Shown: piece by piece, positions 2,202 to 23,558 of the stretch
Numbering within the stretch: position 1 is the first letter of the stretch
Layout of the letters: the number at the start of each line of letters is the position of its first letter
NCBI GenBank assembly: GCA_028717645.1
Contig: JAQUNK010000001.1
Location: 68,794-132,793 of the forward strand
Length of the DNA stretch: 64,000 bases
Source of the DNA: Candidatus Omnitrophota bacterium
Lineage (GTDB): Bacteria; Omnitrophota; Gorgyraeia; Gygaellales; JAMWDD01
Reading direction: 5' to 3'
Position numbers and translations under genes: made by a program
The notes under the pieces: generated by a model
The model's database searches: none
What the model was told of the DNA's origin: nothing
The model's input: the letters and a program-made list of their open reading frames with translations, nothing else

Positions 2202-2210
2202 ATCTTTTCT

Positions 2211-2885
2211 ATGAAAAGAGCGGATAATTTATATATAAAGGCAATAATCTTTGATATGGACGGTGTGATCACGAATACCATGCCGTATCATTTTGACGCC
2301 TGGAAAACCTCTTTGGCCAAGAGAGGGATAGAGGTGAATTGCTACGATGTGTATAAGCGCGAGGGCCAGCGCGGTAAAGAAACAATAAAAGAAATATGCA
2401 GGGAGCATCGTTCTGATTTGAGCAGGGCCGAGCAGGATAAGGTTCTTAGTGAGAAAGAAAGAATATTCAATGCTACTGTGAAAATAAAATTTATTAAAGG
2501 CTCAAGGCCGTTTTTAAGAAAATTAAAAAACAGGGGGTTCTTTCTTTCGATCGTTACCGGGACTTCCAGGAAAGAAGTAAAAAAGATATTGCCAAAGAAT
2601 ATTTACGACCTTTTTGACGTGATCATAACCGCGGATGAAGTATCTTATGGCAAGCCTCACCCTGAACCATTCCTGTTGGCCTTAAATAATCTGGGTATTG
2701 CAAAGAAGGATGCTGTAGTCATAGAAAACGCGCCTTTTGGCATCGAATCGGCAAAGAAGGCTGGCCTTTATTGTATCGCCATAGAAACATCCCTACCTGG
2801 GAAATTTCTTAAAGGCGCGGACAGGGTTTTTAGATCCATCGCGCAATTGCAAGAGAGGGTAAATTTCATTAATTCTAAGAGGTGA
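2211..2885 (+). CDS. HAD-superfamily hydrolase, similar to beta-phosphoglucomutase or phosphatase.
   Basis: HAD motif I (IIFDMDGVITNT), with SIVTGTS and K...ENAPFGIESAKKAG motifs. Confidence 0.75.
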   Translation: MKRADNLYIKAIIFDMDGVITNTMPYHFDAWKTSLAKRGIEVNCYDVYKREGQRGKETIKEICREHRSDLSRAEQDKVLSEKERIFNATVKIKFIKGSRPFLRKLKNRGFFLSIVTGTSRKEVKKILPKNIYDLFDVIITADEVSYGKPHPEPFLLALNNLGIAKKDAVVIENAPFGIESAKKAGLYCIAIETSLPGKFLKGADRVFRSIAQLQERVNFINSKR

Positions 2886-2888
2886 ATT

Positions 2889-3962
2889 ATGTCCAAAGTC
2901 TATTTTATTGCCGCTAAGGATAAAAATAATATTAAAGATAATTCCAGAAAACTTCTTTATTTGGTTGAACAAAGTAAATTATTGGACCTGATCAAGAAAG
3001 AAGACCTCGTAGCCCTAAAACTCCATTTCGGAGAAGATAAAAATACCGGCTATGTCAATCCGGAATACTTGGGATTGCTTGTAGGCGAAGTCAGAAAGAG
3101 AGGGGCCAAGCCATTCCTTACTGATACGAACACGCTTTATAAAGGAAGGCGTGCGAATGCCGTTGACCATTTAGAGATAGCCTTAGAGCATGGCTTTGTT
3201 CCGGATAAGGCCCGGGCGCCGATATTCATTGCCGATGGTTTTATGGGCGAAGATTACGAAGAAGTAGAGATCAGCCAAAAATTCTTTAAAACTGCTTTTG
3301 TCGCTAAAGGAATAAGGAGCGCGGATAGCATGGTAGTTGTTTCGCACTTTAAGGGGCACATCATGACCGGCTTCGGCGGCGCTTTAAAGAACTTGGGTAT
3401 GGGTTGTGCCGCAAGAGTGGGCAAATTAAAACAGCATGCCGATGTTTCTCCTTTTGTAGTAATAGAAAAATGTATTGCCTGCGAGAAATGCGTAGTGAGT
3501 TGCCCGGTATCGGCGATCAAGATGGCCGGCGGCAAGGCGAGCATCGATAATAAAAAGTGTATTGGCTGCGCAAACTGTATCGCGGTTTGTCCGGTAGCGG
3601 CTATAGAGGTGAACTACGCGCATGGCGCGGATACTATCCAGCAGAAAATGATAGAATATGCGAGTGCTGCTTTAAAGGGGAAAGAAAAGAGGTGCGTATT
3701 CATAAACTTTGCGATGAAGATAACCAAGGAATGCGACTGCCTGGCCAAGGATGATCCTTTGATCTGCGAGGATATCGGTATTTTTACGTCTTCCGACCCG
3801 GTGAGCCTGGATAAGGCCTGTGTAGATATAATAAATAAGGTGAACGGAAAGGATATTTTCCGCCAAGCGCATCCGGAAAGGGACTGGTCAATACAGTTGG
3901 CGCACGCTGCTAAGCTCGGCATCGGCTCACTTGATTACGAATTAATAGAATATAAGATTTAA
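2889..3962 (+). CDS. DUF362-domain iron-sulfur protein with 2x[4Fe-4S] ferredoxin domains.
   Basis: The N-terminal ~200 aa resemble the DUF362 family. It also carries CIACEKCVVSCP and CIGCANCIAVCP ferredoxin motifs. A strong SD (AGAGGTGA) precedes the ATG. Confidence 0.6.
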   Translation: MSKVYFIAAKDKNNIKDNSRKLLYLVEQSKLLDLIKKEDLVALKLHFGEDKNTGYVNPEYLGLLVGEVRKRGAKPFLTDTNTLYKGRRANAVDHLEIALEHGFVPDKARAPIFIADGFMGEDYEEVEISQKFFKTAFVAKGIRSADSMVVVSHFKGHIMTGFGGALKNLGMGCAARVGKLKQHADVSPFVVIEKCIACEKCVVSCPVSAIKMAGGKASIDNKKCIGCANCIAVCPVAAIEVNYAHGADTIQQKMIEYASAALKGKEKRCVFINFAMKITKECDCLAKDDPLICEDIGIFTSSDPVSLDKACVDIINKVNGKDIFRQAHPERDWSIQLAHAAKLGIGSLDYELIEYKI

Positions 3963-3973
3963 GTTATTTATCC

Positions 3974-4002
3974 TTGACAACTTTGGCTAAAAGTAGTATT
4001 TT
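3974..4002 (+). promoter_or_regulatory. Sigma70-like promoter (TTGACA-17 nt-TATTTT) upstream of the hydrogenase locus.
   Basis: TTGACA at 3974-3979 and TATTTT at 3997-4002 with a 17-nt spacer, in the 124-bp intergenic gap before the 4087 CDS. Confidence 0.45.
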
Positions 4003-4033
4003 ATTAACCTCCATATTTTTTTTGGGGTATATT

Positions 4034-4049
4034 TGTGATAATTTTCACA
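4034..4049. promoter_or_regulatory. CRP/FNR-family-type palindrome TGTGA-N6-TCACA.
   Basis: Perfect TGTGATAATTTTCACA, about 38 bp upstream of the 4087 start codon and downstream of the predicted -10. Confidence 0.45.
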
Positions 4050-4086
4050 AAGTAGTCCTCCGCAAAGGCTCTGGAAACCTGCTTTA

Positions 4087-5181
4087 ATGGAAACTTATTT
4101 CTTAAAGAACGAAGATATTTTACGCTTTTACGCATTAGTCGCCCGGGATTACGAGCTCTATGTCCCGGTAAAGGCGGAAACTAAGCTTAAGGTCGACTGC
4201 GACTACCAATTTAAGCTGCCTACAGTTGATTACCGCGTTGAATCCTACCCTAAAGTAGATAAAGAAAAAATAGTTTTCAGTGAATACCGCTCGTTTGAGC
4301 CGATACGTAGTTTCTTTACTCGCGCTAAAGAGAAAGTCGCTGATTATTTTGATCCTAGCGCGGATAATGGAACGGAAAGACCGCTGGCTATCTGCGGGGT
4401 CAAGAATTGCGACCTTTTTTCGCTTAAAATACAGGATTTTGTTTTCTTAGGCGGTGAAGAGCCGGATCCGATTTATAAAAAAAGGCGCGAGACCGCCCTG
4501 ATTATTTCCAGCGACTGCCCCAGCTTTAAAGAAGTCTGTTTTTGCCTGGCCTTTGATATCCCACCGCATGTAAGTGAAGGTTTCGATATCAATTTATCTC
4601 CTCTTGATGACGGATACCTCCTGGATTTTGCCTCGGAAAAGGCAAAGAAAGTAGCGGCTACGCTCAAGGATATTCTTGTTAAGGCCGAAAGCAGGCAGCT
4701 ACATCTACGTAATATCAGAAGAGATGCGGTGGTAAAGCGCCTCAAGGAGCATCTTTCCCATCATCAAATTCCCAAAAAAGAAGCTTTACAGGAGATCGTC
4801 GTTTCCGGCCTTGATTCGCCGGTCTGGAAAGAGCAAATGCAGACTTGCGTTGAATGCGGCGGCTGCGTTTTTATGTGCGATACCTGCCACTGTTTTCTTT
4901 TAAGTGATGAACCGATAGGTACGGGTAACCAGAGAGTAAGAAGTTGGGATGGCTGCCTTTATAAGAATTTTACCCGCGTCGCCGGAGGGGCAAACCCTTT
5001 AAAAATGCGTTATATGCGGCTACGCAACCGCTACCTTAAGAAATTCGATTTTTTCATCACAAACATCGGCTTCCAGGCCTGCTGTGGCTGCGGAAGATGT
5101 ATTGATGTTTGTCCGGGAAAAATCGACATCCGTTATATTCTAAGAAAATTATATGAAGAAAAACATCTATCAGCCCATTGA
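4087..5181 (+). CDS. 4Fe-4S cluster protein, similar to sulfhydrogenase beta (HydB) or anaerobic sulfite reductase AsrA.
   Basis: CVECGGCVFMCDTCHC and CCGCGRCIDVCPG cysteine clusters. Its 3' end is coupled to the flavoprotein gene that follows. Confidence 0.55.
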   Translation: METYFLKNEDILRFYALVARDYELYVPVKAETKLKVDCDYQFKLPTVDYRVESYPKVDKEKIVFSEYRSFEPIRSFFTRAKEKVADYFDPSADNGTERPLAICGVKNCDLFSLKIQDFVFLGGEEPDPIYKKRRETALIISSDCPSFKEVCFCLAFDIPPHVSEGFDINLSPLDDGYLLDFASEKAKKVAATLKDILVKAESRQLHLRNIRRDAVVKRLKEHLSHHQIPKKEALQEIVVSGLDSPVWKEQMQTCVECGGCVFMCDTCHCFLLSDEPIGTGNQRVRSWDGCLYKNFTRVAGGANPLKMRYMRLRNRYLKKFDFFITNIGFQACCGCGRCIDVCPGKIDIRYILRKLYEEKHLSAH

Positions 5182-5971
5182 GGCGGTTATTGAAGACGTC
5201 CGGCAGGAAACAGCCGCAATAAAGACTTTTGTCTTTAAGCCGAAATCTCCATTCTCATTCCGTACCGGGCAATTTATCGAGCTTACCGTTCCGGGCTTCG
5301 GAGAGGCGCCCTTTACGCCTTCGTCTGACCCTGCGATAGCGGAAAAATTAGAAGTGACCATTATGAAAGCGGGTAAGGTCACGGCAGTGTTGCATAATAT
5401 GAAGAAGGGCGATGTAGTCGGCATACGCGGGCCTTACGGCAAGGGATACCCCTTGGATAAATTTAAGGGTAAGGATATTCTTATAGTTGGTGGCGGCGTG
5501 GGGCTAGCTCCATTACGGTCATTCTTATACGCGCTTTTTGCCGATATAGATAAATATAATAAAATAATTTTACGCTATGGTTCGCGCACTTCCAATGATA
5601 TTGTCTATAAAGATATTATTCCCGAGTGGTCAAAAAAGAAAAAAGTAGATATCATGACTACCGTCGATATGGGAGATCCTGCCTGGAAGGGCAATGTGGG
5701 GCTGGTTACGACGATATTAAACGACTTGCCGTTGGACCTGAAAAAAGCAGTGGGGGTGGTTTGCGGCCCGCCGATCATGATGAAATTCGTGACGCTAAAA
5801 TTGCTTGAGCTGGGGTTTAAGCCGCAGGATATTTATTTATCCATGGAAAAGAACATGTCTTGCGGGCTGGGTAAATGCGGGCATTGCCGATTGGGTAAAT
5901 TTTATGTTTGTAAGGATGGCCCGGTGTTCGCTTACGAAGACATAAAAAATATGCACGATATCTGGGATTAA
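5153..5971 (+). CDS. FAD/NAD(P)-binding oxidoreductase with a C-terminal [2Fe-2S], similar to PyrK, HydG or AsrB.
   Basis: RTGQFIEL (flavin binding), GGGVGLAPLRS (NAD(P) binding) and a C-terminal CGLGKCGHCRLGKFYVCKDGPVF motif. Confidence 0.7.
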   Translation: MKKNIYQPIEAVIEDVRQETAAIKTFVFKPKSPFSFRTGQFIELTVPGFGEAPFTPSSDPAIAEKLEVTIMKAGKVTAVLHNMKKGDVVGIRGPYGKGYPLDKFKGKDILIVGGGVGLAPLRSFLYALFADIDKYNKIILRYGSRTSNDIVYKDIIPEWSKKKKVDIMTTVDMGDPAWKGNVGLVTTILNDLPLDLKKAVGVVCGPPIMMKFVTLKLLELGFKPQDIYLSMEKNMSCGLGKCGHCRLGKFYVCKDGPVFAYEDIKNMHDIWD

Positions 5972-5978
5972 TATAGAG

Positions 5979-6479
5979 ATGAAGAGATTATTTGTGGATC
6001 TTGAACTTTGCAGCAAATGCGATGAATGTTCGGTCTGTTGCGATTATTTTTATCATCCGCAGAATAACGGCATTGCGTCTTTACGCGAATACGCGACTTT
6101 TGCCACTATCTGCCGGCATTGCGAACAGGCGCCGTGCGTCAATGCCTGTTATCATGATGCATTAGAGCGTGCCAGCGATGGGCACATCAAACGCTATAAA
6201 ATGCGCTGTACCAGCTGTAAATCCTGCTCTGTGGCTTGCCCGTTCGGGATAATTTTTCAGGACTTTATTCCTTATCTGGACTCAAAATGCGATTTTTGTA
6301 TCGGCCGGTCAGATAAATTTCCGGCCTGTATCGCCAGTTGCCCCGAGCACGCTGTTGAAGTAAAAGACGTAGAAGAAAGCCTGGAACAAAATATTTATTT
6401 CGTGGGCGAACACTTGGCTGTGCATAGTTTGAAGTGGTCAAGGGAAGACCTGCAGCCGCCTAAACCGAAGAAGAAATGA
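5979..6479 (+). CDS. Polyferredoxin electron-transfer subunit with four [4Fe-4S] clusters, similar to HycB, HydN or CooF.
   Basis: Four Cys clusters (CSKCDECSVCC, CRHCEQAPCVNAC, CTSCKSCSVACPFG, CDFC...CIASCP), colinear with HycB. Confidence 0.7.
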   Translation: MKRLFVDLELCSKCDECSVCCDYFYHPQNNGIASLREYATFATICRHCEQAPCVNACYHDALERASDGHIKRYKMRCTSCKSCSVACPFGIIFQDFIPYLDSKCDFCIGRSDKFPACIASCPEHAVEVKDVEESLEQNIYFVGEHLAVHSLKWSREDLQPPKPKKK

Positions 6480-7387
6480 AATTATTGCTTAGTTATCTCA
6501 TATTCCCGGGGTTTTTATTCAGTGCATGCATAGGTTTATTCGCCGGTTGGGTGGACAGAAAGGTCACTGCGCGTATCCAATATCGCGTAGGCCCGCCGTG
6601 GTATCAGAATTTCATGGATATCGTAAAGTTATTGCATAAAGAGATCATTATACCTGAGGGCGCGAGGCTTACCTTTTTATTCGCGCCATTCTTAGGGCTC
6701 TTAAGCGTGGTCTTGATGTCTACCATATTGGGCAGGAGTTTAAATATCTACGCTTCGGGTTTTAGCGGTGACCTCATTGTGATCGTTTATTTGTTGGTTA
6801 TGCCGGCGATAGCCATGATCATTGGTGCATCTTCTTCCGAGAATCCACTGGCTTCTATCGGCGCATCGCGTGAGATCAAGGCGGTCCTGGCTTACGAATT
6901 ACCTTTTATCCTTTCGATTATCGCGATCATCGTAAAATCCGGAGGGAGCATCCGGATAGGAAGCATTCTGAACCACCAGGCCTTTGCCGGATCTAACATC
7001 GCTTCTTTTTCCGGGGCCCTGGCTTTTATCGTGGTTTTATTCTCGATACAGGCAAAGCTATGTTTTGTGCCTTTTGATGCTTCTGAGGCGGAGCAGGAAC
7101 TTATGGCCGGTACTTTGATCGAGTATTCGGGCTTGCCTTTGGCGATGTTTAAATTAACCAAGGCGATATTGCTTTATGCGTTGCCGGTATTTTTGATCGT
7201 TTTATTTATGGGCAAGGATATCAGCCCGATATTCCTGATTGGTAAATATATTTTGATCTTAGTGTCGATCATCCTGATCAAAAATACCAACCCGCGTTTG
7301 CGTATCGACCAGACATTAAGATTTTTCTGGGGGCCGATGGCTGTACTAGCGGTATTGGCATTGGGATTGACTTTATTCGGATTATAA
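6476..7387 (+). CDS. Membrane subunit of a group 4 hydrogenase, NuoH-like (also similar to HycD, EchB, MbhM).
   Basis: Eight predicted TM segments. The RIQYRVGPPWYQNF signature is shared with NuoH and HycD. Confidence 0.8.
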   Translation: MKLLLSYLIFPGFLFSACIGLFAGWVDRKVTARIQYRVGPPWYQNFMDIVKLLHKEIIIPEGARLTFLFAPFLGLLSVVLMSTILGRSLNIYASGFSGDLIVIVYLLVMPAIAMIIGASSSENPLASIGASREIKAVLAYELPFILSIIAIIVKSGGSIRIGSILNHQAFAGSNIASFSGALAFIVVLFSIQAKLCFVPFDASEAEQELMAGTLIEYSGLPLAMFKLTKAILLYALPVFLIVLFMGKDISPIFLIGKYILILVSIILIKNTNPRLRIDQTLRFFWGPMAVLAVLALGLTLFGL

Positions 7388-7388
7388 A

Positions 7389-7820
7389 ATGAGCCTGAAA
7401 ATAAAAGCTTTAACTAAATCTCTCTGGGTTTTCCATGCTGCTACTTCACCGTGCAATAACTGTGATATCGAAGTGTTGGATCTTTTTACTCCGCGCCATG
7501 ATATTGAAAGATTCGGGATGACCCTAGTGGGAAGCGTTAGGCATGCGGATGTGCTTGTGGTCACTGGTGTGCCTAATTATAAAACTAAAGAAAGGCTGAA
7601 GAAATTATACAGCCAGGTCTCCAAACCGTGTCTGGTGGTGGCCATAGGAAATTGCGCCTGCGGTAGGATTATGTTCAAGGAATCCTACAATAGCCCTTGC
7701 CCGGTGGATGAAGTGGTGCCGGTCGATGTCTATATCCCGGGCTGCCCGCCGAAGCCGGAGGCGATGATCGCGGGGATCGTAAAGCTGATTAATAAACTTA
7801 AAGCAAAAGAGAAGAAATAA
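7389..7820 (+). CDS. [NiFe]-hydrogenase small subunit, NuoB-like (also similar to EchC, MbhJ, HycG).
   Basis: CNNCDIEV, GNCACGR and PGCPPKPEA motifs typical of NuoB-like proximal-cluster subunits. Confidence 0.8.
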   Translation: MSLKIKALTKSLWVFHAATSPCNNCDIEVLDLFTPRHDIERFGMTLVGSVRHADVLVVTGVPNYKTKERLKKLYSQVSKPCLVVAIGNCACGRIMFKESYNSPCPVDEVVPVDVYIPGCPPKPEAMIAGIVKLINKLKAKEKK

Positions 7821-8263
7821 TGCTTGTCCTAGAAAGAGTAAAAGAAAAGTTAGCCAATAAGGCCTTTGATTGGTACGAACATACGCCAAGACGGGTTTAT
7901 TTTAAAATGGACCCCAAGGATATTAAGCATGTGGCGAATGCCTTGTTCAAGGACCTGGGTTTCAGGTTTATTATTGCCACTGGCTGCGATACGCCGGAAG
8001 GCATTGAGATCCTGTACCATTTTGGTTATGACAAGGCCGGCCTGATCGTTTCCGGACGGACGTTATTAAAAGATAAGAAAAAACCAGAAATAGATTCTAT
8101 CGCCCCGTTATTTGTTGGCGCTGAATGGATAGAGCGGGAGATGTGGGAACTTCTGGGGATAAATTTTATCGGGCATCCTAATTTAAAGCACCTGCTTTTG
8201 ATCGATGAATGGCCAAAGGGAGACTATCCTTTGCGCCACGACCTTAAAGAGGGGTCTAAATAA
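7820..8263 (+). CDS. NuoC-like 30-kDa subunit of the hydrogenase (also similar to EchD, MbhK).
   Basis: Overall similarity and length match the NuoC/HycE N-terminal domain. Its position between the small and large subunit genes agrees. Confidence 0.65.
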   Translation: MLVLERVKEKLANKAFDWYEHTPRRVYFKMDPKDIKHVANALFKDLGFRFIIATGCDTPEGIEILYHFGYDKAGLIVSGRTLLKDKKKPEIDSIAPLFVGAEWIEREMWELLGINFIGHPNLKHLLLIDEWPKGDYPLRHDLKEGSK

Positions 8264-9450
8264 TGTCAAAAAAAGTAATTATACCCATAGGGCCGTATCA
8301 CCCGCTGCAAGAAGAACCGGAATTTTTCCGGCTTTTTGTAGAGGGAGAGAAGGTCGTGGATATAGATATCGTCCTGGGTTATATGCACCGTGGCATCGAA
8401 GAGCTGGCTGAGCACAAACATTACGACCAGGTGGCCTTTTTGGTCGAGCGCATCTGCGGGATCTGTTCGAATTCGCATCCTTTTGCTTATGTCAATGCTG
8501 TAGAGAATATAGGTAAGATGGAGGTGCCGGAAAGGGCGCTCTACATCCGCACGATCATCGCGGAGTTGGAAAGATTGCATAGTCATTTATTATGGCTGGG
8601 CCTGGCCGGGCACTTTATCGGTTACAATACCGTCTGGATGTGGTCATGGCGTTATCGCGAGCCGGTGTTGGATTGTTTTGAAATGATCACCGGTAACCGC
8701 CAGCATTACGGAATGATGAAGATAGGCGGTGTCAGGCGTGATATCAAAGATGAAGATGTACCGGTGTTAAAAAAGACCCTTGATGAGTTGGTCCCGGCGT
8801 TAGATATGTTTAAGGGTGCGGTGATGGATGACCCGGTGATCCAGGCGCGGCTTAAGGGCGTGGGCGTGCTTACCAGGAAGCAGGCTATTGAATGGTGCGC
8901 GGTAGGGCCGACTGCCCGGGCGTCGGGAGTGGATATAGATATTCGTAGGGACGATCCTTATGGTGCGTATGATAAAGTAGATTGGAACGTGATCGTAGAA
9001 AAAGACGGCGATATATTTTCTAAAACAGTAGTGCGCATATTGGAGATGTATGAATCAGTAGGTATCATCCGTCAGTGCCTGGACAGGATGCCGAAGGGCG
9101 AGATCGATGCCAATGTCAAAGATATCCCTCCCGGGGAAGGTATCGGTAGAGTTGAGGCGCCGAGGGGCGAATGTTTCCATTATGTAAAAAGCGACGGGAC
9201 CAACCGGCCCCTGCGGCATAAGATCAGAGCGCCCAGTTATATGAATGTGGCAACTAACAAAGTGGCTGCAGTGGGCCAGACGATTTCCGATACGACGATC
9301 ACCCTGGCTGCGGTTGACCCTTGCTACTGCTGTACAGAGAGGGTGATGGTTGTAGACAAGAAGACCAACGGCAAGATCATGGATGGCTTGGACCTGGTAA
9401 GATTGTCCCAGGAAAAGACGGAAAAAATTAAAAAGGCGCTTAAGCAATGA
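8263..9450 (+). CDS. Group 4 [NiFe]-hydrogenase large subunit, NuoD-like (also similar to EchE, MbhL, HycE).
   Basis: N-terminal RICGICSNSH (L1 CxxC) and C-terminal DPCYCCTER (L2 DPCxxC) nickel-iron ligand motifs are both present. Confidence 0.85.
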   Translation: MSKKVIIPIGPYHPLQEEPEFFRLFVEGEKVVDIDIVLGYMHRGIEELAEHKHYDQVAFLVERICGICSNSHPFAYVNAVENIGKMEVPERALYIRTIIAELERLHSHLLWLGLAGHFIGYNTVWMWSWRYREPVLDCFEMITGNRQHYGMMKIGGVRRDIKDEDVPVLKKTLDELVPALDMFKGAVMDDPVIQARLKGVGVLTRKQAIEWCAVGPTARASGVDIDIRRDDPYGAYDKVDWNVIVEKDGDIFSKTVVRILEMYESVGIIRQCLDRMPKGEIDANVKDIPPGEGIGRVEAPRGECFHYVKSDGTNRPLRHKIRAPSYMNVATNKVAAVGQTISDTTITLAAVDPCYCCTERVMVVDKKTNGKIMDGLDLVRLSQEKTEKIKKALKQ

Positions 9451-11117
9451 CCACTAGCCGCTTTTATCCATTACTGAGATTGGACGCCCTGAACAGTTTT
9501 GTGGTTCTGGCCATAGCGTTGTTCTCTGCCCTCACAATAATTTATTCTTTGAAATTCATAAAAGAAAAGCGGCTGCAATATTATACCTATATTATCCTGA
9601 CTGCTTTCGCCTCAATCGGGGTGGTCCTGGCGAACAATCTTATCCTGCTTCTGGTTTTCTGGGGATTTCTGGGCCTGACATTGTATCTATTGGTTAGCAT
9701 GGGCCAGGGCTCGACCGATGCGGCCAAAAAGACCTTGATCATCGTAGGCGGGTCAGACGCCTTGATGCTTTTGGGTGTGGCTATAATTTATTTTCTCACC
9801 GACACCTTTTATCTGGACGCAATAAGGCTGGAGTTTAACAGTAGCCTGGCGGTTATTTCCTATATCTGTATCGCCCTGGCTTGTTTTGCGAAAGCAGGGG
9901 CAATACCGCTACATACTTGGATACCCGACGCTGCTAAGTCAGCGCCTGCTCCGGTAGCCGCCTTTCTGCCTGCATCTTTGGATAAATTATTGGGGATCTA
10001 TTTATTAGCCCGCCTGAATCTGGACCTGTTCACGATGAATACGGCAATGAATACTTTCCTTATGGTTATTGGTGCAGTGACCATAATCACGGCGGTAATG
10101 ATGGCTTTGGTACAGCATAATTTAAAAAGGCTTTTGGGTTATCACGCGGTTTCACAGGTCGGTTATATGGTTTTAGGTATTGGTACGGGAAATCCCATTG
10201 GTATCGCCGGCGGGATATTCCATATGCTGAACCATGCCGTATACAAATCCTGTTTGTTCTTTACCGCGGGTAACATTGAATACCGCGCGAAAACGTCCGA
10301 ACTTGATGAATTAGGGGGATTGGCTAAATTGATGCCGGTTACTTATATTTCCTGTCTGGTAGCCAGCTTTTCCATATCCGGCGTACCGCCTTTTAATGGT
10401 TTCTTCTCTAAATGGATGATCTATCAGGGCCTGGTTACCCAATTACAGAGTGCGGATTACAGGATACAGGCGATAAATATCTTGTGCCTGGCAGCGGCTA
10501 TGTTCGGCTCAGGGCTTACCCTGGCCAGTTTTATGAAGCTAATTCATGCGGCATTTCTTGGCCAACCGAACAATGCGCTCATCCGGCGCTCGTTGCAAGG
10601 AGGGCATAAAGATGAGGTGCCATTCTCCATGTGGCTGCCGCCCTTGATATTAGCGGTTATCTGCGTTGTATTCGGTGTATTCGCTTATCAAATCCCGCTC
10701 AGGGTTTTTATTTTTCCCGCTGTGCCGGGAGTAGATTTTATCGGGACGTGGTTTGCCGGGTTATCTACTTTATTGATTGCTTCAGGACTTGTTTTAGGAT
10801 TATTTATATTTAGATCAAGAGGCCTGGGGTCTTTCATCCGGCAGGATGCGGCCTTTATGGGTTGTGAACCGGAAGACCTGGATAAACACCGGATCACCGG
10901 AATAGAATTTTATAACACGATAAAAGAATACGGCATATTAAAAGGGATTTATCAGAAGGCCGAATCAGGAGTTTATGATATCTACGAACAGGTCAAGAAG
11001 GTTTTGTCCGGCGCAGGCAGGTTCCTGCAATATCTGCATAACGGAGTACTGCCTTCGTATCTGATCTGGGCGCTTTTGGGAATGATCGGTTTATTCCTTA
11101 TTCTGATGAAGGGTTAA
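9447..11117 (+). CDS. NuoL/MrpA-like proton- or sodium-pumping antiporter subunit (also similar to MbhH).
   Basis: 556 aa with about 14 predicted TM segments. Conserved HAVYKSCLFF...GVPPFNGFFSK antiporter-domain motifs. Confidence 0.75.
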   Translation: MTTSRFYPLLRLDALNSFVVLAIALFSALTIIYSLKFIKEKRLQYYTYIILTAFASIGVVLANNLILLLVFWGFLGLTLYLLVSMGQGSTDAAKKTLIIVGGSDALMLLGVAIIYFLTDTFYLDAIRLEFNSSLAVISYICIALACFAKAGAIPLHTWIPDAAKSAPAPVAAFLPASLDKLLGIYLLARLNLDLFTMNTAMNTFLMVIGAVTIITAVMMALVQHNLKRLLGYHAVSQVGYMVLGIGTGNPIGIAGGIFHMLNHAVYKSCLFFTAGNIEYRAKTSELDELGGLAKLMPVTYISCLVASFSISGVPPFNGFFSKWMIYQGLVTQLQSADYRIQAINILCLAAAMFGSGLTLASFMKLIHAAFLGQPNNALIRRSLQGGHKDEVPFSMWLPPLILAVICVVFGVFAYQIPLRVFIFPAVPGVDFIGTWFAGLSTLLIASGLVLGLFIFRSRGLGSFIRQDAAFMGCEPEDLDKHRITGIEFYNTIKEYGILKGIYQKAESGVYDIYEQVKKVLSGAGRFLQYLHNGVLPSYLIWALLGMIGLFLILMKG

Positions 11118-11118
11118 G

Positions 11119-11637
11119 ATGGAAGTACATATTCTTTTGATATTCATGATTATCGGCGCAATAGTGGCTTTGGAGGCTAGAGACTTATTGTCGAGCGTGA
11201 TCGTGCTGGGGGTGGTGAGCTTTGCCCTCTGCTTGGCTTTTCTTATCCTTAAGGCACCGGACTTGGCTATTACGCAACTGGTGGTTGAGATTTTGTGTTT
11301 GATTATCCTGATCAGGGCAACGATCAAGCGGGACTTACCTCTGGCCATAGAAGGCCGCTGGATCTTTAATACCATTTCCACGGTAGTCTTTATTTGCGTG
11401 TTCCTTTATTTTGTCATGCTTGCCTTAAGAGAACTGCCTGTTTTCGGCGAGCCGATAATGGCCGTAGTGAGAGAATACCTGGAAAAAGGCAAGACCGAGA
11501 CCGGAGCGGTGAATCTAGTGACTGCGGTGGTCCTGAATTTCCGCGCCTACGATACGCTCGGTGAGGCGGCAGTCTTATTTACTTCTATCATCGGGATAGT
11601 GGCGGTTTTACGCAGCCCAGGGAAGAAGAAAGATTAG
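11119..11637 (+). CDS. Mrp-complex membrane subunit, MnhB-like DUF4040 domain (similar to MbhD/E).
   Basis: APDLAITQLVVE motif and four predicted TM segments. Confidence 0.6.
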   Translation: MEVHILLIFMIIGAIVALEARDLLSSVIVLGVVSFALCLAFLILKAPDLAITQLVVEILCLIILIRATIKRDLPLAIEGRWIFNTISTVVFICVFLYFVMLALRELPVFGEPIMAVVREYLEKGKTETGAVNLVTAVVLNFRAYDTLGEAAVLFTSIIGIVAVLRSPGKKKD

Positions 11638-12087
11638 ATGGAAAATAAACCAAAGACAGGTATGAGCCTGATAGTCAAGACGATCACCCGCTTGATCGTG
11701 GGTTTAGTTTTGCTTTTCGGCATATATATTGTTTTGCACGGGCATCTTTCTCCGGGTGGTGGTTTTTCCGGAGGGGTGATCGTGGCCTTGTCCTTTGTGC
11801 TGATGATGCTTGCTTTCGGAGAAGACGTGGCTGTGGCAAAAATTTCCAGGAATCTTGCCTCTAACCTGGAAAGTATCGGCGCGCTGATGTTTTTATTCAT
11901 CGCTATTTTAGGTTTTCTGGGCGGTTCATTCTTCTTGAATATATTATCTACGGGAACACCTTTTAAATTATTTAGCGCAGGCACGATTATTTTAAGCAAT
12001 ATTTCTATCGGGATAAAAGTAGGCATAGGATTATTTGCCATATTCCTGGCTTTAGTAATTTTGGAAAAGACAAAGAGGGAAAGGTAA
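11638..12087 (+). CDS. Na+/H+ antiporter subunit B (MnhB/MrpB).
   Basis: HLSPGGGFSGG motif characteristic of the MnhB domain, in a small membrane protein. Confidence 0.65.
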   Translation: MENKPKTGMSLIVKTITRLIVGLVLLFGIYIVLHGHLSPGGGFSGGVIVALSFVLMMLAFGEDVAVAKISRNLASNLESIGALMFLFIAILGFLGGSFFLNILSTGTPFKLFSAGTIILSNISIGIKVGIGLFAIFLALVILEKTKRER

Positions 12088-12091
12088 TTAA

Positions 12092-12430
12092 ATGAGCCTC
12101 TATATATTGTGCATGATATTGTTTTGCATAGGCATTTACGGAGTGCTGCGCAAGCGTAATTTAGTAAAAATTATCATCGGCTTGGCTATTATGGGCTATT
12201 CCATAAATTTATTTCTTGTTCTTTTAGGCTATCGCTTCCACGGCCGGGCGGCTATCGAGGCAGAAACCCAGGATATCTTAAGCATGGTTGACCCGTTGCC
12301 ACAGGCCATGGCGCTTACTTCGATCGTAATCAGTCTGGGGATCCTCGCTTTGGTTATTTCCATCGCCATCAGGATCTACGAAAAATACGGCACGTTCGAT
12401 ATTACCAAGATAAAGAGGCTGAAGGGTTAG
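12092..12430 (+). CDS. Na+/H+ antiporter subunit C (MnhC/MrpC, NuoK-like).
   Basis: 112 aa with three predicted TM segments and NuoK/MnhC-like sequence. Confidence 0.65.
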   Translation: MSLYILCMILFCIGIYGVLRKRNLVKIIIGLAIMGYSINLFLVLLGYRFHGRAAIEAETQDILSMVDPLPQAMALTSIVISLGILALVISIAIRIYEKYGTFDITKIKRLKG

Positions 12431-13939
12431 ATGAAAGACGTAAATATCATTCCTTTATTTGTGATCATTCCGCTTTTGACGGCTTTTTTGATCGCGCTGC
12501 TCGGTAAAACAATAAAAAACTTTTCCGAGAAGATAATTGTCGCAAGCAGCAGTTTGCTCCTGGCTTTTTCTTTGTATTCGCAGATATTGCTTAGGCACAC
12601 TCCGTTAAAGACCTTAGTTTACAATGTCGGCGGATGGCTTCCGCCTTTTGGGATATCCATGGTCTTGGACGGATTAAGCAGTTTTATGCTCATAGTCGTC
12701 AATTTGATCGCTTTCTTCGTGGCCGTATATTCCTTAAGCTATATGGAAAAATATACGGATAAGCCGAAATTCTTCACCTTATTTGCTTTGATGGTTTCTG
12801 GCTTAAATGGCGTAATCGTTACCGGGGATATATTCAATCTTTTCGTATTTTTGGAGATCGCTTCAATTGCCAGTTACGCGCTGGTTGCCTTTGGCACGCA
12901 AGCAGAGGAACTCGAAGCTTCGTTCAAATATACGATCATGGGTACAGTTGCTTCCAGTTTCATATTTCTCGGGATCGTTTTTCTCTATGGTTTTGCCTCG
13001 ACACTGAATATGGCGCACATGGCTTCGGTATTGAATTCTAAATTAAGCATCTGGCTCCTGCCTTTCGTAAGCGTTCTATTTCTGGCGGGTTTTAGTTTGA
13101 AAGCGGCAATGGTCCCTTTCCACGGTTGGCTTCCCGACGCACATTCATCGGCGCCCGCTTCAATTTCCGCTATGCTTTCTGGCGTGTTGATCAAGACGTT
13201 GGGTATTTATGCGATGATGAGAATCTTCTTCAATGTCTTAGGGATAACCCAGGCCCAGTTGAGCATACTGATGTTTTTAGGCTCGCTTTCTATAATTACA
13301 GGCGCGATACTGGCTTTTTCGCAGTGGGATTTCAAAAGATTATTGGCTTATTCTACCATTAGCCAGGTCGGCTATATTGTTTTAGGCCTTGGCTTGGGCA
13401 CGCCGTTGGGAATATTCGGCGCGTTATTCCATTTATTCAACCATTCGGTGTTTAAATCACTGCTTTTTTTAAATTCCGGAGCAGTAGACTATGCCGCCAG
13501 CACCCGAGACCTAAGAGAAACAGGGGGGTTAAACAAAGTAATGCCTGTGACTACCAAGACCAATTTTATCGCCTCGATGTCCATTTCCGGCATACCGCCA
13601 TTCAGTGGATTTTTCAGTAAGCTGATCATTATTTTTGCTTGTATCCAAAAGGGCCATATCGGATACGGCTTATGCGCGGTAATAGGGAGCATTTTAACCT
13701 TGATCTATTTTATGAAATTGCAAAAGTTCGTCTTTTTAGGCGAGCTGAAAGATAAATTTAAGCAGATAGCAGAAGTTCCTTACCTGATGAGGTTTTCTAT
13801 GATTTGCCTCGCTGCCATCTGTATTTTGGCAGGTTTTCTGCTTCTTCCTGCCTTAAGGCCATTTTTGGACAGGGCCTCGGATGTTTTATTGGGCGGTACT
13901 AATTATGCGGCCGCTGTTATGGGGGCTGCTCTAAGATAA
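12431..13939 (+). CDS. Na+/H+ antiporter subunit D (MnhD/MrpD, NuoM/N-like).
   Basis: 502 aa with about 14 predicted TM segments. WLPDAHSSAPASISAMLSGV and GIPPFSGFFSK antiporter motifs. Confidence 0.75.
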   Translation: MKDVNIIPLFVIIPLLTAFLIALLGKTIKNFSEKIIVASSSLLLAFSLYSQILLRHTPLKTLVYNVGGWLPPFGISMVLDGLSSFMLIVVNLIAFFVAVYSLSYMEKYTDKPKFFTLFALMVSGLNGVIVTGDIFNLFVFLEIASIASYALVAFGTQAEELEASFKYTIMGTVASSFIFLGIVFLYGFASTLNMAHMASVLNSKLSIWLLPFVSVLFLAGFSLKAAMVPFHGWLPDAHSSAPASISAMLSGVLIKTLGIYAMMRIFFNVLGITQAQLSILMFLGSLSIITGAILAFSQWDFKRLLAYSTISQVGYIVLGLGLGTPLGIFGALFHLFNHSVFKSLLFLNSGAVDYAASTRDLRETGGLNKVMPVTTKTNFIASMSISGIPPFSGFFSKLIIIFACIQKGHIGYGLCAVIGSILTLIYFMKLQKFVFLGELKDKFKQIAEVPYLMRFSMICLAAICILAGFLLLPALRPFLDRASDVLLGGTNYAAAVMGAALR

Positions 13940-14433
13940 TGAAAAACAAAATTACTTTATTTATTATCTGGTATATCCTTTGGATGTGCTTAACCTGGCC
14001 GTTCGACCCTGAGCACGCGATAGTAGGTATCGCCGTTGCGGGATTCATTACCTTTATTACTAGTGATCTATTTACGCCGAGGCTGGAACATTTTGGCCAG
14101 ATAAACAGGTATTTATGGTTTTTCTATTTCGTATTTTTGTTCCTCGGGGAGTGTTTAAAGGCAAATATCAATGTGGCAATAAGGGTTCTTAACCCAAAAT
14201 TACCTATTCATCCCGGTATTGTTAAGGTAAAGACAGATTTGAAATCGGAGATAGGCATCACCTTTTTGGGAAATTGTCTTACACTTGCCTCGGGCACACT
14301 CTGTGTAGATGTTGACCAGGAAAGAAGATTTCTTTATGTCCACTCACTTGATGTCAAATCTCAAGATACTGGAGAATCAGCGCAATTGATCGTAAATAAG
14401 TTTGAAAAAGTTCTAGAGAGGATTTTTGAATGA
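13939..14433 (+). CDS. Na+/H+ antiporter subunit E (MnhE/MrpE).
   Basis: Size, N-terminal TM pair, and position between the mrpD and mrpF homologs. Confidence 0.55.
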   Translation: MKNKITLFIIWYILWMCLTWPFDPEHAIVGIAVAGFITFITSDLFTPRLEHFGQINRYLWFFYFVFLFLGECLKANINVAIRVLNPKLPIHPGIVKVKTDLKSEIGITFLGNCLTLASGTLCVDVDQERRFLYVHSLDVKSQDTGESAQLIVNKFEKVLERIFE

Positions 14434-14792
14434 TGAAGACCCTACGTTATTTCCTGGGCATGATCTTACTATTAGCGGCGTTATTATTGGTGAGCCTTTA
14501 CCCGTTACCGTCGCTATTGAATTGGCAGTCGCCTTTTTTGGCGCACTGTTTTTTCATCTTCATGCTTTGTTTCCTGATCTGTATTATTAGGATAATTATC
14601 GGGCCGACCTCTGCGGACAGGGCGGTGGTCATCAATACTTTGGGGATCTTTATTGTCGGTTTCTGCGCCATATTAAGTATTCCCACGGGCAGGGATTGGT
14701 ATCTGGATATTGCCATTGCCTGGGCGCTGCAGAGCTTCGTGGGGGCCCTCGCCTTTGCCAAGTATTTAGAGGGAAGGGGGTTCGATGAATAA
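14430..14792 (+). CDS. Na+/H+ antiporter subunit F (MnhF/MrpF).
   Basis: 120 aa with three predicted TM segments, at the MrpF position. Confidence 0.55.
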   Translation: MMKTLRYFLGMILLLAALLLVSLYPLPSLLNWQSPFLAHCFFIFMLCFLICIIRIIIGPTSADRAVVINTLGIFIVGFCAILSIPTGRDWYLDIAIAWALQSFVGALAFAKYLEGRGFDE

Positions 14793-15108
14793 TATTATCG
14801 GCACCGTATTTATTATTATAGGGTTGGTATTCGATGTTATCGGCTGTATCGGGCTTATTCGTTTTCCCGATGTCTACAGCCGTTTGCAGTCCAGTACCAA
14901 ATGCGCTGTTTTAGGCACTGTAAGCATTCTTCTCGGTACTTTTATTATCAGAGGGGTGAGCCCCACGGGCGTCAAGGCGTTTTTAACCGCGGTATTTTTG
15001 TTGCTTACTGCACCCGTAGCAGCGCATGCACTGGCGCGAGGCGCATATAAGTCTGCGGCAAGGCTTTGGGAAAAATCTGTTTGCGACGATTACGCTGAAA
15101 ATAAGTGA
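14785..15108 (+). CDS. Na+/H+ antiporter subunit G (MnhG/MrpG).
   Basis: GLIRFPDVYSRLQSSTK matches the MnhG signature (RFPD.Y.RLHA). Confidence 0.7.
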   Translation: MNNIIGTVFIIIGLVFDVIGCIGLIRFPDVYSRLQSSTKCAVLGTVSILLGTFIIRGVSPTGVKAFLTAVFLLLTAPVAAHALARGAYKSAARLWEKSVCDDYAENK

Positions 15109-15118
15109 GGACACAATC

Positions 15119-15718
15119 TTGAGATATCCTAAATTACGTGAATTAAAAGAAGCGATCAAGGCCCTGATCAAGGGGCCATATACGTCCAAGTTCCCCTTAA
15201 AGGCGCATAAACCTTTCCCGCGGTTCAGGGGCAGGCCCGAATACCATGAAGAGGATTGCGTAGGTTGTGGCGCCTGTTTTCAGGTCTGTCCGGCCAAAGC
15301 CATTGAAATGCAGGATATCGGAACAAAGAGGATCCTGACCGTACATTGGGATATGTGCGTTTTCTGCGGGCAATGCCAGGCAAATTGCATTACGGAGAAA
15401 GGTATTATGCTTTCAAACGAATTCGATCTGGCTACTACTGAGAAGAGGGAAGACCTTAAGCAGGAAATAGAAAAAGAATTCGTAGTTTGCACTTGCTGTG
15501 GTGAAAGGATCGTGCCGCGCGACCATATTTTATGGGTGGCCAAAAAGGTTGGTCCGCTGGTATTTTCAAACGCTTCTTTAATGCTTTTCTATTTAGAGAA
15601 CCTTGGAGTATCTGAGGAAAGCAAATCTTCTAAACCATCTGCGCAGGAATTTTCACGCGCCGACAGGATAAAAGTGCTTTGTCCCAAGTGCCGGCGCGAG
15701 GCAGTGATCCAATCCTAA
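15119..15718 (+). CDS. NuoI-like 2x[4Fe-4S] ferredoxin subunit (similar to MbhN), with a C-terminal CxxC...CxxC zinc-ribbon extension.
   Basis: CVGCGACFQVCP and CVFCGQCQANC motifs, plus C-terminal CTCCGER...CPKC. The ORF-track start at 15026 overlaps mnhG by 83 nt. A TTG at 15119 preceded by GTGAGGA (SD-like) is the more likely start. Confidence 0.6.
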   Translation: MRYPKLRELKEAIKALIKGPYTSKFPLKAHKPFPRFRGRPEYHEEDCVGCGACFQVCPAKAIEMQDIGTKRILTVHWDMCVFCGQCQANCITEKGIMLSNEFDLATTEKREDLKQEIEKEFVVCTCCGERIVPRDHILWVAKKVGPLVFSNASLMLFYLENLGVSEESKSSKPSAQEFSRADRIKVLCPKCRREAVIQS

Positions 15719-15740: not shown

Positions 15741-16919
15741 ATGTGTTATTCTATTCCCGGTAAAGTTATCGCGATCAAAGAAAACATCGTTTCGGTCGAC
15801 TATTTTGGCGAAGATAAGAAAGCAAAAAATGATTTTTTCACGCTAAAATTAGGCGACTATGTTTATGCGCAGGGCGGCTTTGTGGTGCAGAAGATCTCTG
15901 AACGAGAGGCGCTGCCGGTTCTGGAAAGCTGGAAGGAGCTCTTTGTTAAACTCCAAGAGGCGGACCTTAAGCTTTCGCAAAACCCCAAGACGCTTTATCA
16001 GCGGGCAAACTATATCCGCAATAAATATCTGGGCAATGCCTGTTGTATCCACGGGATCATTGAATTTTCCAATTATTGCCGTTCGGATTGCCTTTATTGC
16101 GGGATAAGAAAAAGCAATACCGTGCTTAAGCGCTACCGCATGGAACCAGAGGAGATAGTAAAGACGGCGGTGGATGCGGTAAAAACTTTAGGTTTTAAGG
16201 CGCTGGTGCTACAATCCGGCGAAGATACCTGGTATGATGACGATAAGCTTGTGGAGATAGTCAAAAAAATAAGGGAAAAAGCCGCGGTCCTCTTGGTTCT
16301 AAGCATCGGAGAAAGGGGCATAAAAACATATCAGAAACTTTATGATGCTGGGGCACGCGGAGCGCTCCTGCGTTTTGAAACAAGCAATCCGGCTTTGTAT
16401 GAGAAGATGCGGCCGGCTCACAAACTAGCGGAGCGTGTGGAATTGCTTAAAGAATTACGTGAAATGGGTTATCTGACCATGACCGGATTCCTGATCGGCA
16501 CACCCGGCCAGACAGATGAAGATATCCAAAATGATATCAAGCTTACCGCTAGCCTCGGTACGGATATGTTTTCCTTTGGCCCGTTCATCCCACATCCGGG
16601 CACACCCTTAGGTAAAAATTCTGCGCCTGGGCTAGACCGCGTTTTAAGCGTAATTGCCAATACCCGCCTAAGCTACCCAGAGGCAAAGATCCTGGTGACC
16701 ACGGCCATGGAGACACTGGATAAAGAGAATGGGATGAAGTTCGGGCTTTTATCTGGAGGCAATTCGCTGATGGTAAATTTGACTCCTGCCCAATACCAGC
16801 GGCTCTACGATATCTACCCGGATCGGGCAGGTGTCGCAGAAGACGTTGTCCAAAGAATCAATTCTGCAATAAAATTACTCTATTCCCTTGGCCGCGCACC
16901 GGCTGACCTCGGCCTCTAA
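15741..16919 (+). CDS. Fusion protein with an N-terminal HypC/HupF-like domain joined to a HydE-type radical SAM enzyme ([FeFe]-hydrogenase maturase family).
   Basis: The N-terminus MCYSIPGKV...GDYVYAQGGFVVQKISEREA matches the HypC fold (MCxxxP, GD.V.V..GFA...EA). The remainder is colinear with HydE: IIEFSNYCRSDCLYCGIRKSN...RYRMEPEEIV, LVLQSGED, FIPHPGTPL, NLTPAQYQRLYDIYP. Confidence 0.7.
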   Translation: MCYSIPGKVIAIKENIVSVDYFGEDKKAKNDFFTLKLGDYVYAQGGFVVQKISEREALPVLESWKELFVKLQEADLKLSQNPKTLYQRANYIRNKYLGNACCIHGIIEFSNYCRSDCLYCGIRKSNTVLKRYRMEPEEIVKTAVDAVKTLGFKALVLQSGEDTWYDDDKLVEIVKKIREKAAVLLVLSIGERGIKTYQKLYDAGARGALLRFETSNPALYEKMRPAHKLAERVELLKELREMGYLTMTGFLIGTPGQTDEDIQNDIKLTASLGTDMFSFGPFIPHPGTPLGKNSAPGLDRVLSVIANTRLSYPEAKILVTTAMETLDKENGMKFGLLSGGNSLMVNLTPAQYQRLYDIYPDRAGVAEDVVQRINSAIKLLYSLGRAPADLGL

Positions 16920-18735: not shown

Positions 18736-18742
18736 CAATTCA

Positions 18743-19567: not shown

Positions 19568-19610
19568 GCAAATCACAAATCCAAAATCTCAATGGTCCAA
19601 ACTAAAATGT

Positions 19611-19675: not shown

Positions 19676-19714
19676 CCAATAATTTAAAGCAATACATTAT
19701 AAAGTGAGGTTAAA

Positions 19715-21858: not shown

Positions 21859-21865
21859 ATAAATA

Positions 21866-21982: not shown

Positions 21983-21994
21983 AAAAAGGATAAC

Positions 21995-23544: not shown

Positions 23545-23558
23545 GAAGGAGGAAGAAA

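Follow-up and report, generated by a model that had tools for sequence, protein, structure and literature searches.

Mrp-linked [NiFe] hydrogenases that are preceded by a flavoprotein pair have so far been known from genome data. In 2021, Glass et al. (bioRxiv 10.1101/536078) described in silico, from metagenomes, a 16-gene putative operon, which they named hun and assigned to a Hun supercomplex. In their scheme HunA and HunB resemble AsrA and AsrB, HunC to HunF together with HunP make up the hydrogenase module, with HunG as the large subunit and HunH to HunO as the antiporter/Mrp part (10.1101/536078). The signature CGIC...CYCC is diagnostic for HunG, which HydDB assigns to group 4g, though it is distant from the other 4g sequences. 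AsrC is missing from the hun operons, and in some metagenome-assembled genomes (MAGs) hunB and hunC are separated by a gene for a molybdopterin protein. The operon was reported in Atribacteria, Firmicutes, Omnitrophica, Elusimicrobia and Bacteroidetes and in Kosmotoga isolates (10.1101/536078). Here, we analyzed a stretch of 64,000 nucleotides (nt) from a Candidatus Omnitrophota bacterium, subsequently designated the window, to whose positions all coordinates refer. The window carries a Hun-type operon at 4087-15718, with all genes on the plus strand, which is a new and complete example of this already named family. It agrees with the published operon in its 16 genes, in their order and, one for one, in their domains, as well as in the HunG signature and in the AsrA-/AsrB-like genes at the 5' end that are not accompanied by AsrC. 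There is no structural difference between both operons, the window lacking the optional molybdopterin protein between hunB and hunC. They differ in the electron carrier, and there only at the level of proposals: ferredoxin in the published work, as compared to NAD(P)H (the reduced nicotinamide adenine dinucleotides), which is favoured by homology in the present analysis.

Similar gene clusters are known from further studies. Carnevali et al. (2019; PMC6349859) described an "enigmatic" hydrogenase in Saganbacteria RX5A, which is encoded together with Mrp genes, cooF, asrA, asrB and an unclassifiable molybdoprotein, and whose closest relatives are found in Zixibacteria and Omnitrophica. A "Mbh-Mrp-oxidoreductase type" was reported in Elusimicrobia by Meheust et al. 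(2020; 10.1101/765248). Finally, a study from 2026 (PMC13582414) dealt with group 4b clusters that encode a dead formate dehydrogenase (Fdh) and proteins homologous to subunits beta and gamma of the sulfhydrogenase SHI, and suggested that these systems couple to NADPH and bifurcate. All of these clusters share with Hun an Mrp-linked group 4 hydrogenase and AsrA/AsrB (SHI-beta/gamma)-like genes. Our literature search for later work on Hun itself retrieved only the original naming paper. An earlier interpretation of the window, which was made from the nucleotide sequence without database searches (the sequence-only reading), had implied that the architecture is novel and had gone unrecognized. 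This view has to be given up: the layout was named in 2021 and reported in Omnitrophica (10.1101/536078), and AsrA/AsrB-like genes beside Mrp-linked hydrogenases were noted in 2019, 2020 and 2026 (PMC6349859, 10.1101/765248, PMC13582414).

Listing of open reading frames (ORFs) and scans with Pfam and NCBIfam models detected 16 co-oriented ORFs in 4087-15718, which overlap or are separated by gaps of at most 10 nt. The operon starts with three genes for soluble redox proteins. The first one, hunA (4087-5181), encodes an iron-sulfur (FeS) protein of 364 amino acids (aa) resembling AsrA and the sulfhydrogenase beta subunit (Pfam Fer4_22). It is followed by hunB (5153-5971), encoding a flavoprotein of 272 aa with sites for flavin adenine dinucleotide (FAD), NAD(P) and [2Fe-2S], which is related to AsrB, the sulfhydrogenase gamma subunit and PyrK (FAD_binding_6, NAD_binding_1, DHODB_Fe-S_bind), and by hunC (5979-6479), encoding a HycB/HydN-like polyferredoxin of 166 aa with four Cys4 motifs (Fer4_11). 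The hydrogenase genes encode a NuoH/HycD/MbhM-like membrane subunit (hunD, 6476-7387; NADHdh, 200 bits), a NuoB-like small subunit (hunE, 7389-7820; Oxidored_q6 and the NCBIfam NuoB family, 136 bits), a NuoC-like subunit (hunF, 7820-8263; Complex1_30kDa) and the group 4 [NiFe] hydrogenase large subunit (hunG, 8263-9450; NiFeSe_Hases and Complex1_49kDa). The genes for the membrane arm are hunH (9447-11117; NuoL/MrpA/MbhH-like antiporter-like subunit of 556 aa, Proton_antipo_M), hunI (11119-11637; fused MbhD/MbhE-like membrane subunit, MbhD and MbhE), hunJ (11638-12087; MnhB/MrpB-domain subunit, MnhB), hunK (12092-12430; MrpC/NuoK-like, Oxidored_q2), hunL (12431-13939; MrpD/MbhH-like antiporter subunit of 502 aa, Proton_antipo_N and Proton_antipo_M), hunM (13939-14433; MrpE-like, MNHE), hunN (14430-14792; MrpF-like, MrpF_PhaF) and hunO (14785-15108; MrpG-like, PhaG_MnhG_YufB). 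The last gene, hunP (15119-15718), encodes a HycF/NuoI-like subunit with two [4Fe-4S] clusters (NCBIfam formate hydrogenlyase FeS subunit, 95 bits). It most probably starts at the TTG codon at 15119 rather than at the ATG at 15026, because GAGGA precedes this codon by 7 nt and because the protein called by NCBI likewise has 199 aa. Thus, the complete hydrogenase core, the Mrp set and the redox-partner genes listed in the sequence-only reading were all found in place and on the plus strand. An NCBI protein from Candidatus Omnitrophica is 100% identical to HunG, and the hun genes of the window are also present on GCA_028710905.1.

The genes of the flavoprotein pair deserve particular attention, as they occupy the place of the input dehydrogenase in formate hydrogenlyases. 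HunA obtained 157 bits with the NCBIfam model for ShyB, 143 bits with HydB and 110 bits with AsrA, whose cut-off is 323, and HunB obtained 230 bits with the AsrB model (cut-off 289). Among proteins of known structure, HunA matched the beta subunit of SHI, the soluble hydrogenase I of Pyrococcus furiosus that oxidizes NADPH (PDB 9nez_B, E = 2.8e-36), and HunB its gamma subunit (9nez_C, E = 3.6e-56). The relevant motifs of HunB are 90-100% conserved in 59 orthologues, i.e. GEAPFTPSS for the FAD site, GGGVGLAP and CGPPIMMKF for nucleotide binding, and CGLGKCGHC...C for the [2Fe-2S] cluster. By virtue of its FAD and NAD(P) motifs and the four [2Fe-2S] cysteines, HunB appears to be a flavoprotein of the FNR/PyrK type and is predicted to depend on NAD(P)H. 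HunA and HunB are homologous to the part of SHI that holds the FeS clusters, the [2Fe-2S] cluster, FAD and the NADPH site. However, SHI belongs to group 3b and has group 3 alpha and delta catalytic subunits, whereas the catalytic part of Hun is of group 4, membrane-anchored and Mrp-linked, placing the operon outside the sulfhydrogenases.

The subunits predicted to link this pair to the catalytic core resemble those of formate hydrogenlyase (FHL). HunC matched HycB4 of the hydrogen-dependent CO2 reductase and HycB of FHL in the PDB, and the best match of HunP was HycF (69 bits), ahead of MbsN and MbhN. Hence, HunC and HunP correspond to HycB and HycF, the connector pair of FHL. Escherichia coli FHL-1 (group 4a, 7z0s) shares with Hun both connectors and the HycE-like C-terminal extension of the large subunit, and the Thermococcus group 4b systems Fdh-Mfh-Mnh and CODH-Mch-Mnh (CODH, carbon monoxide dehydrogenase) share the arrangement of a hydrogenase core followed by Mrp genes. 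In these group 4a and 4b enzymes the input is a formate or CO dehydrogenase, while in Hun this position is taken by the SHI-type beta/gamma pair, and the operon is consequently not an FHL. The sequence-only reading had stated that neither FdhF nor CooS is encoded. For Fdh this holds for the whole window, since tblastn with the molybdopterin-family (Fdh-like) protein of a related locus (L076, see below) detected no such ORF in the 64 kb (best E = 7.6). For CooS the statement is confined to the annotated genes of the window, among which there is no CooS-like domain or gene, no search aimed at CooS having been made. HunP carries, in addition, a C-terminal extension of about 60 residues past the core with the two [4Fe-4S] clusters (approximately 15530-15710), which contains the pattern CxxC...CxxC (VCTCCGE...LCPKCRRE). 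The cysteines of this extension are conserved in 58 orthologues and may form a zinc-ribbon or ligate a further cluster; perhaps HunC docks there.

To place the operon in a wider context, we scanned one genome per species and obtained 80 loci with large subunits that share 63-82% identity with HunG of the window. They derive from at least 10 phyla and include Omnitrophota, Elusimicrobiota/Endomicrobia, MAGs labelled Planctomycetota, Ignavibacteria, Verrucomicrobiota, Actinomycetota, Atribacterota, WOR-3, Dehalococcoidales and Clostridia; the example genome UBA9627 of Glass et al. is among them (L038). Close homologues of HunG in metagenomes number thousands. All proteins of the window were compared with the 80 loci by tblastn, and loci with enough upstream sequence were considered informative. 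The order HydB-HydG-HycB-NuoH-B-C-D-antiporter-Mrp-NuoI is kept essentially everywhere. HunA is present in 54 of 55 informative loci, HunB in all 56 and HunC in 63 of 64, the few apparent absences being contig-end effects. Median intergenic distances among the hunA, hunB and hunC genes in the related loci are -7, 14 and 4 nt. Moreover, pairwise identities of HunA and HunB correlate with those of HunG (r = 0.76-0.82; 0.76-0.86 when HunC is included), as compared to r = 0.875 for the core subunit HunP. We also looked for gene fusions among HunA, HunB, HunC or the other subunits as evidence for contact and found none. Synteny, nearly overlapping reading frames and divergence correlated with HunG thus support the conclusion that HunA and HunB form a conserved, apparently co-transcribed component of the hydrogenase, rather than being stray neighbors. 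The assumption of the sequence-only reading that the pair is wired to the hydrogenase is strengthened by these data, whereas the possibility it had left open, namely that the pair serves an unrelated pathway, finds no backing in the related loci.

A few related loci deviate in gene content. A gene of the molybdopterin-oxidoreductase family is located between hunB and hunC in only two of the 56 informative loci, namely L076 from Dehalococcoidales (2006-3808, 600 aa) and L079 from WOR-3 (1060-2613, 517 aa), with only an Fe4S4 domain signal left in the latter. The clusters for which bifurcation was proposed (PMC13582414) contain such a molybdopterin-family subunit, in contrast to the window and the other 54 loci.

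HunG contains the L1 motif RICGICSNSH and the L2 motif DPCYCCTER, followed by a HycE-like C-terminal extension of 35 residues. Both Ni-Fe motifs with their Ni-binding cysteines are conserved in 81 aligned sequences. Together with the NuoB-like small subunit and the NuoH- and NuoL-like membrane subunits, this identifies the enzyme as a group 4 energy-converting [NiFe] hydrogenase. HunG obtained only 47 bits with the ShyA model, whose cut-off is 700, and belongs to the NuoD/group 4 type. The closest large subunit of known structure is MbhL of the P. furiosus membrane-bound hydrogenase (MBH; 6cfw_L, 44.7% identity, 307 bits, E = 1e-90), followed by HycE (7z0s_E, 38.9% identity, E = 1e-82). As compared to at least 63% identity within the Hun clade, these values place HunG outside the characterized subgroups, a judgement that relies on the identities to solved MbhL and HycE and on the literature, and that agrees with the sequence-only reading. 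HunG homologues carry varying names in public databases, including "nickel-dependent hydrogenase large subunit", "NADH:ubiquinone oxidoreductase", "NADH-quinone oxidoreductase subunit D" and "membrane-bound hydrogenase subunit alpha". Because of these inconsistent annotations, many Hun operons have probably been counted as complex I in metagenome surveys.

The membrane arm formed by HunH to HunO is MBH/Mrp-like as judged by homology. HunH matched MbhH (176 bits) and MrpA (172 bits) of known structure about equally well, and HunL matched MbhH with 272 bits and MrpD with 249 bits. P. furiosus MBH (group 4d, 6cfw) has the Mrp-type arm with equivalents of MbhA to MbhH and the NuoB-, C-, D-, H- and I-like core in common with Hun, and coupling to Na+/H+ is presumed to be shared as well. 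However, MBH contains one antiporter-like subunit, while Hun has two and in some relatives three. Furthermore, MBH consists of 14 subunits and receives ferredoxin straight at MbhN, whereas Hun adds the HycB-like polyferredoxin and the FAD/NAD(P) pair, and its NuoI-like subunit is closer to HycF than to MbhN. The operon can therefore not be classified as an MBH.

Two kinds of insertion between hunG and hunH were observed in the related loci. In L003, a third antiporter-like subunit of 464 aa (Proton_antipo_N and Proton_antipo_M) is encoded at 11798-13192, and it also occurs in L005, L013, L021, L029, L030, L035, L037-39, L042 and L044. The number of putative pumping modules per Hun operon therefore varies from two to three. 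In L001, a PhoU-domain protein of 206 aa is encoded at this place (11194-11814), which is absent from the operon of the window and recurs in about ten further Omnitrophota-type loci, e.g. L002, L006, L011, L014, L015, L019, L023 and L036. PhoU domains are otherwise tied to the regulation of phosphate and Na+/Pi transport.

Based on these comparisons, we give slightly better than an even chance to the reading that Hun is a 16-subunit complex, which catalyzes reversible electron transfer between NAD(P)H and H2 coupled to the movement of Na+ or H+. In this model, HunD, HunE, HunF, HunG and HunP would constitute the group 4 [NiFe] core, and HunH to HunO with their two antiporter-like subunits would form the ion-translocating MBH/Mrp-type membrane arm. 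The soluble input/output arm would extend from HycF-like HunP via HycB-like HunC to HunA/HunB acting as a diaphorase of the sulfhydrogenase type. Electrons would pass from NAD(P)H to FAD and the [2Fe-2S] cluster in HunB, through the FeS clusters of HunA to the four [4Fe-4S] clusters of HunC, and onward via the two [4Fe-4S] clusters of HunP and the [4Fe-4S] cluster of HunE to the NiFe site in HunG, or in the reverse direction. Movement of Na+ or H+ in HunD and HunH to HunO would be tied to this electron transfer. Gene content and order, conserved motifs, synteny and homologies are observed here, whereas assembly into one complex, the route of the electrons, NAD(P)H as the carrier and the coupling to ions with its direction are what we infer from them.

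Several lines of evidence make NAD(P)(H), which the sequence-only reading had suggested, a plausible carrier at HunB and favour it over ferredoxin. The only HunB homologue of known structure is the NADPH site of SHI. The Asr enzyme of Salmonella is linked to NADH via AsrB and not to ferredoxin. MBH accepts ferredoxin without any subunits like HunA, HunB or HunC. Moreover, one would hardly expect a passive wire to be a nucleotide-binding flavoprotein that all 56 informative loci, from different phyla, have kept. Use of NAD(P)H also agrees with what was reported for Omnitrophota MAGs, namely a single hydrogenase each, of type 3b, 3d, A3 or 4g; the first three are NAD(P)-linked, and ferredoxin is already handled by Rnf, which these MAGs encode as well (PMC8542988). 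Likewise, it fits the independent proposal of NADPH coupling for related group 4 clusters (PMC13582414).

The mode in which the ion arm operates would depend on the H2 pressure, because the standard potentials (-320 and -414 mV) make the transfer of electrons from NAD(P)H to H2 uphill by approximately 18 kJ/mol, and the reaction becomes favourable only below approximately 70 Pa H2. Three options can be envisaged. An ion gradient could drive release of H2 from NAD(P)H. Alternatively, energy could be conserved from H2-dependent reduction of NAD(P)+, which would be relevant to the predicted acetogens among the Omnitrophota (PMC10066038). Finally, a little energy could be conserved from NAD(P)H oxidation in sediments in which H2 is scavenged.

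A number of points weigh against the NAD(P)H reading. At ordinary H2 concentrations the reaction from NAD(P)H to H2 is endergonic, and an enzyme that pumps outward at the expense of NAD(P)H would need very low H2. HunA and HunB do not reach the equivalog cut-offs of the NCBIfam models for ShyB/C, HydB/G and AsrA/B, and for this reason both proteins seem to belong to a subfamily of their own, which need not use the substrate of its homologues. The 80 loci were picked by at least 63% identity to HunG, and the synteny figures accordingly cover the HunG clade only. The sole paper naming Hun proposes a ferredoxin donor acting via HunABC (10.1101/536078), and surveys of Omnitrophota list the enzyme as a "group 4g, Mrp-linked" Mbh that oxidizes ferredoxin (PMC8542988, PMC10066038). 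No biochemical, transcript or structural data for any Hun complex were found in the literature.

The published view is thus the most serious alternative, although we regard it as unlikely. It holds that HunABC provide an FeS wire or docking site for ferredoxin and that H2 evolution drives export of H+ or Na+ as in MBH, in which case the FAD/NAD(P) site of HunB would be structural, regulatory or unused. Beyond the proposal by Glass et al. (10.1101/536078), ferredoxin is assumed for the 4g enzymes of Omnitrophota, Cloacimonadota and Auribacterota. The closest solved large subunit, MbhL, belongs to a ferredoxin-dependent enzyme, and in polyferredoxins such as HunC clusters can be accessible to ferredoxin. 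Furthermore, electron transfer from ferredoxin to H2 is exergonic and known to drive MBH, which fits an outward ion pump. However, MBH shows that ferredoxin can be accepted directly, at MbhN, and FAD and NAD(P) motifs that are fully conserved in loci of at least 10 phyla are hard to square with a passive wire. The known activities of SHI and of the Salmonella Asr enzyme point in the same direction.

A compromise, which we consider rather improbable, is a branched enzyme using two carriers. Ferredoxin and NAD(P)(H) would both act on the FeS chain, making Hun a hybrid of ferredoxin:NAD(P)+ oxidoreductase and hydrogenase, or allowing confurcation to H2. The chain is long, with roughly 3 + 4 + 2 + 1 clusters and several possible entry points, and a three-way branched bifurcation was proposed for the variants combining SHI-beta/gamma with an Fdh-like protein (PMC13582414), a variant that does occur within the HunG clade (L076, L079). 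However, HunB is an FAD and [2Fe-2S] subunit of the NfnA/PyrK type, and the window encodes no second flavoprotein or Fdh-like subunit. In Nfn, the NfnA/PyrK-type subunit is not the site of the bifurcating flavin. Since the extra molybdoprotein is confined to the two loci mentioned, this reading suits the molybdoprotein variants better than the locus in the window.

Two further explanations fare worse. That HunAB reduce a sulfur compound, i.e. sulfite, polysulfide or S0, with electrons from oxidation of H2 or ferredoxin, is very improbable: HunA and HunB do match the AsrA and AsrB models, and SHI was first described as a sulfhydrogenase with sulfur reductase activity in vitro, but the scores remain under the Asr cut-offs, and the AsrC-like siroheme subunit is missing from the operon as it is from the hun operons of Glass et al. 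(10.1101/536078). A siroheme or AsrC-type gene was also not found in the immediate flanks, the far end of the window not having been annotated exhaustively. Consequently, the operon does not qualify as AsrABC, and the intact Ni-binding cysteines of HunG indicate protons or H2 as the substrate at the other end. Lastly, the idea that the HydB/HydG-like genes belong to an unrelated pathway upstream of an ordinary Mbh-Mrp operon, for which one can invoke only the general possibility and the adjoining DUF362 gene as an instance of such a neighbor, is effectively refuted by the conserved adjacency and orientation of both genes (54/55 and 56/56), the overlapping or nearly overlapping frames and the divergence correlated with HunG.

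Hun resembles respiratory complex I in having modules homologous to NuoB, C, D, H, I, K and L/M/N, and if NAD(P)H is indeed the carrier, both would also have an NADH-type input coupled to ion translocation. Complex I receives electrons via NuoEFG with flavin mononucleotide (FMN) and delivers them to a quinone, whereas Hun has an FAD protein of the FNR/PyrK type and would deliver them to H+ at an intact NiFe site. Whether Hun represents a new class of respiratory enzyme, namely a reversible Na+/H+-translocating NAD(P)H:proton oxidoreductase and hydrogen-ended analogue of complex I, to which HunAB would have been recruited independently of NuoEFG, is in our estimation evenly balanced.

The operon is preceded by an intergenic gap of 124 nt (3963-4086, plus strand) containing the sigma-70-like site TTGACA-17-TATTTT at 3974-4002, which, judged by its consensus match only, is the probable start of the operon. 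This is the best promoter-like site of the region. The total numbers of promoter-like and terminator-like sites in the scan do not exceed the expectation from shuffled sequences, and what hints at a promoter is solely where the best site lies. The terminator scan yielded no convincing terminator within the operon. Upstream of the gap, a gene for a DUF362 protein with two [4Fe-4S] clusters (2889-3962, plus strand) starts 3 nt after a HAD-hydrolase gene (2211-2885), and this gene pair is preceded by glycosyltransferase genes. The sequence-only reading had counted the DUF362 FeS protein as a member of the system. This was not borne out: neither the DUF362 nor the HAD gene gave a tblastn match in any of the 80 related loci, and the promoter-like gap separates them from hunA. 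The DUF362 gene was therefore rejected as a hydrogenase component and is a bystander that belongs to the upstream unit.

Downstream of hunP, after 22 nt, a gene on the plus strand (15741-16919) encodes a protein of 392 aa, in which an N-terminal HypC/HupF domain (MCYSIPG...) is fused to a radical S-adenosylmethionine (SAM) enzyme of the HydE/PylB/BioB type. It obtained 47 bits with TIGR00074 and 261.9 bits with TIGR03956 (rSAM_HydE), as compared to a cut-off of 254.6 for the latter. Both PF01455 and PF04055 are present in all of at least 120 database clusters of this fusion (61-100% identity), which derive from Omnitrophota, Elusimicrobiota, Desantisbacteria and Planctomycetota and are mostly named "[FeFe] hydrogenase maturase HydE" by NCBI. 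Of the 80 related loci, 12-13 have a copy downstream of hunP; 10 of these copies are complete, and the others are cut by contig ends. The presence of a HypC-tethered radical SAM enzyme beside a [NiFe] hydrogenase suggests a [NiFe]-specific role in maturation, and the current database name is likely a misannotation. Our literature search retrieved no paper describing this fusion.

Further downstream on the plus strand follow genes for a glutamine-dependent NAD synthase (17047-18735), an ORF without Pfam match (18614-19567), a NifS-type cysteine desulfurase (19715-20878), BirA (20878-21834), RibBA (22228-23466) and RibD (25258-26367). This run of cofactor genes (17047-26367), relating to supply of NAD, FeS clusters and flavin, is thus located downstream of an operon for an NAD(P)/FAD/FeS enzyme, which may be coincidental. 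In one related locus (L008), NadE is encoded upstream of the hun genes, unlike in the window. Gene-strand bias is very strong throughout: every annotated gene of the first 19 kb and every ORF of at least 180 aa in 19-64 kb is on the plus strand, and GC skew is positive in 32 of 32 bins of 2 kb.

The question of carrier and energy coupling in Hun has already been raised in print, and the window itself is a modest result. Group 4g/Hun hydrogenases are widespread in many, mostly uncultured phyla, and metabolic reconstructions routinely enter them as ferredoxin-dependent H2 producers. Should HunAB exchange electrons with NAD(P)(H), the default annotation "ferredoxin-coupled group 4g" in metagenome studies would be overturned, and models of subsurface and anoxic communities that rely on it would misplace reducing equivalents and energy yield. 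It would also mean a new carrier specificity among energy-converting hydrogenases and a second, independent way of linking an ion pump of the complex I type to a nicotinamide cofactor. In at least 10 phyla, fermenters and acetogens would then be able to pass electrons between NAD(P)H and H2 at the membrane itself, in an energy-coupled manner.

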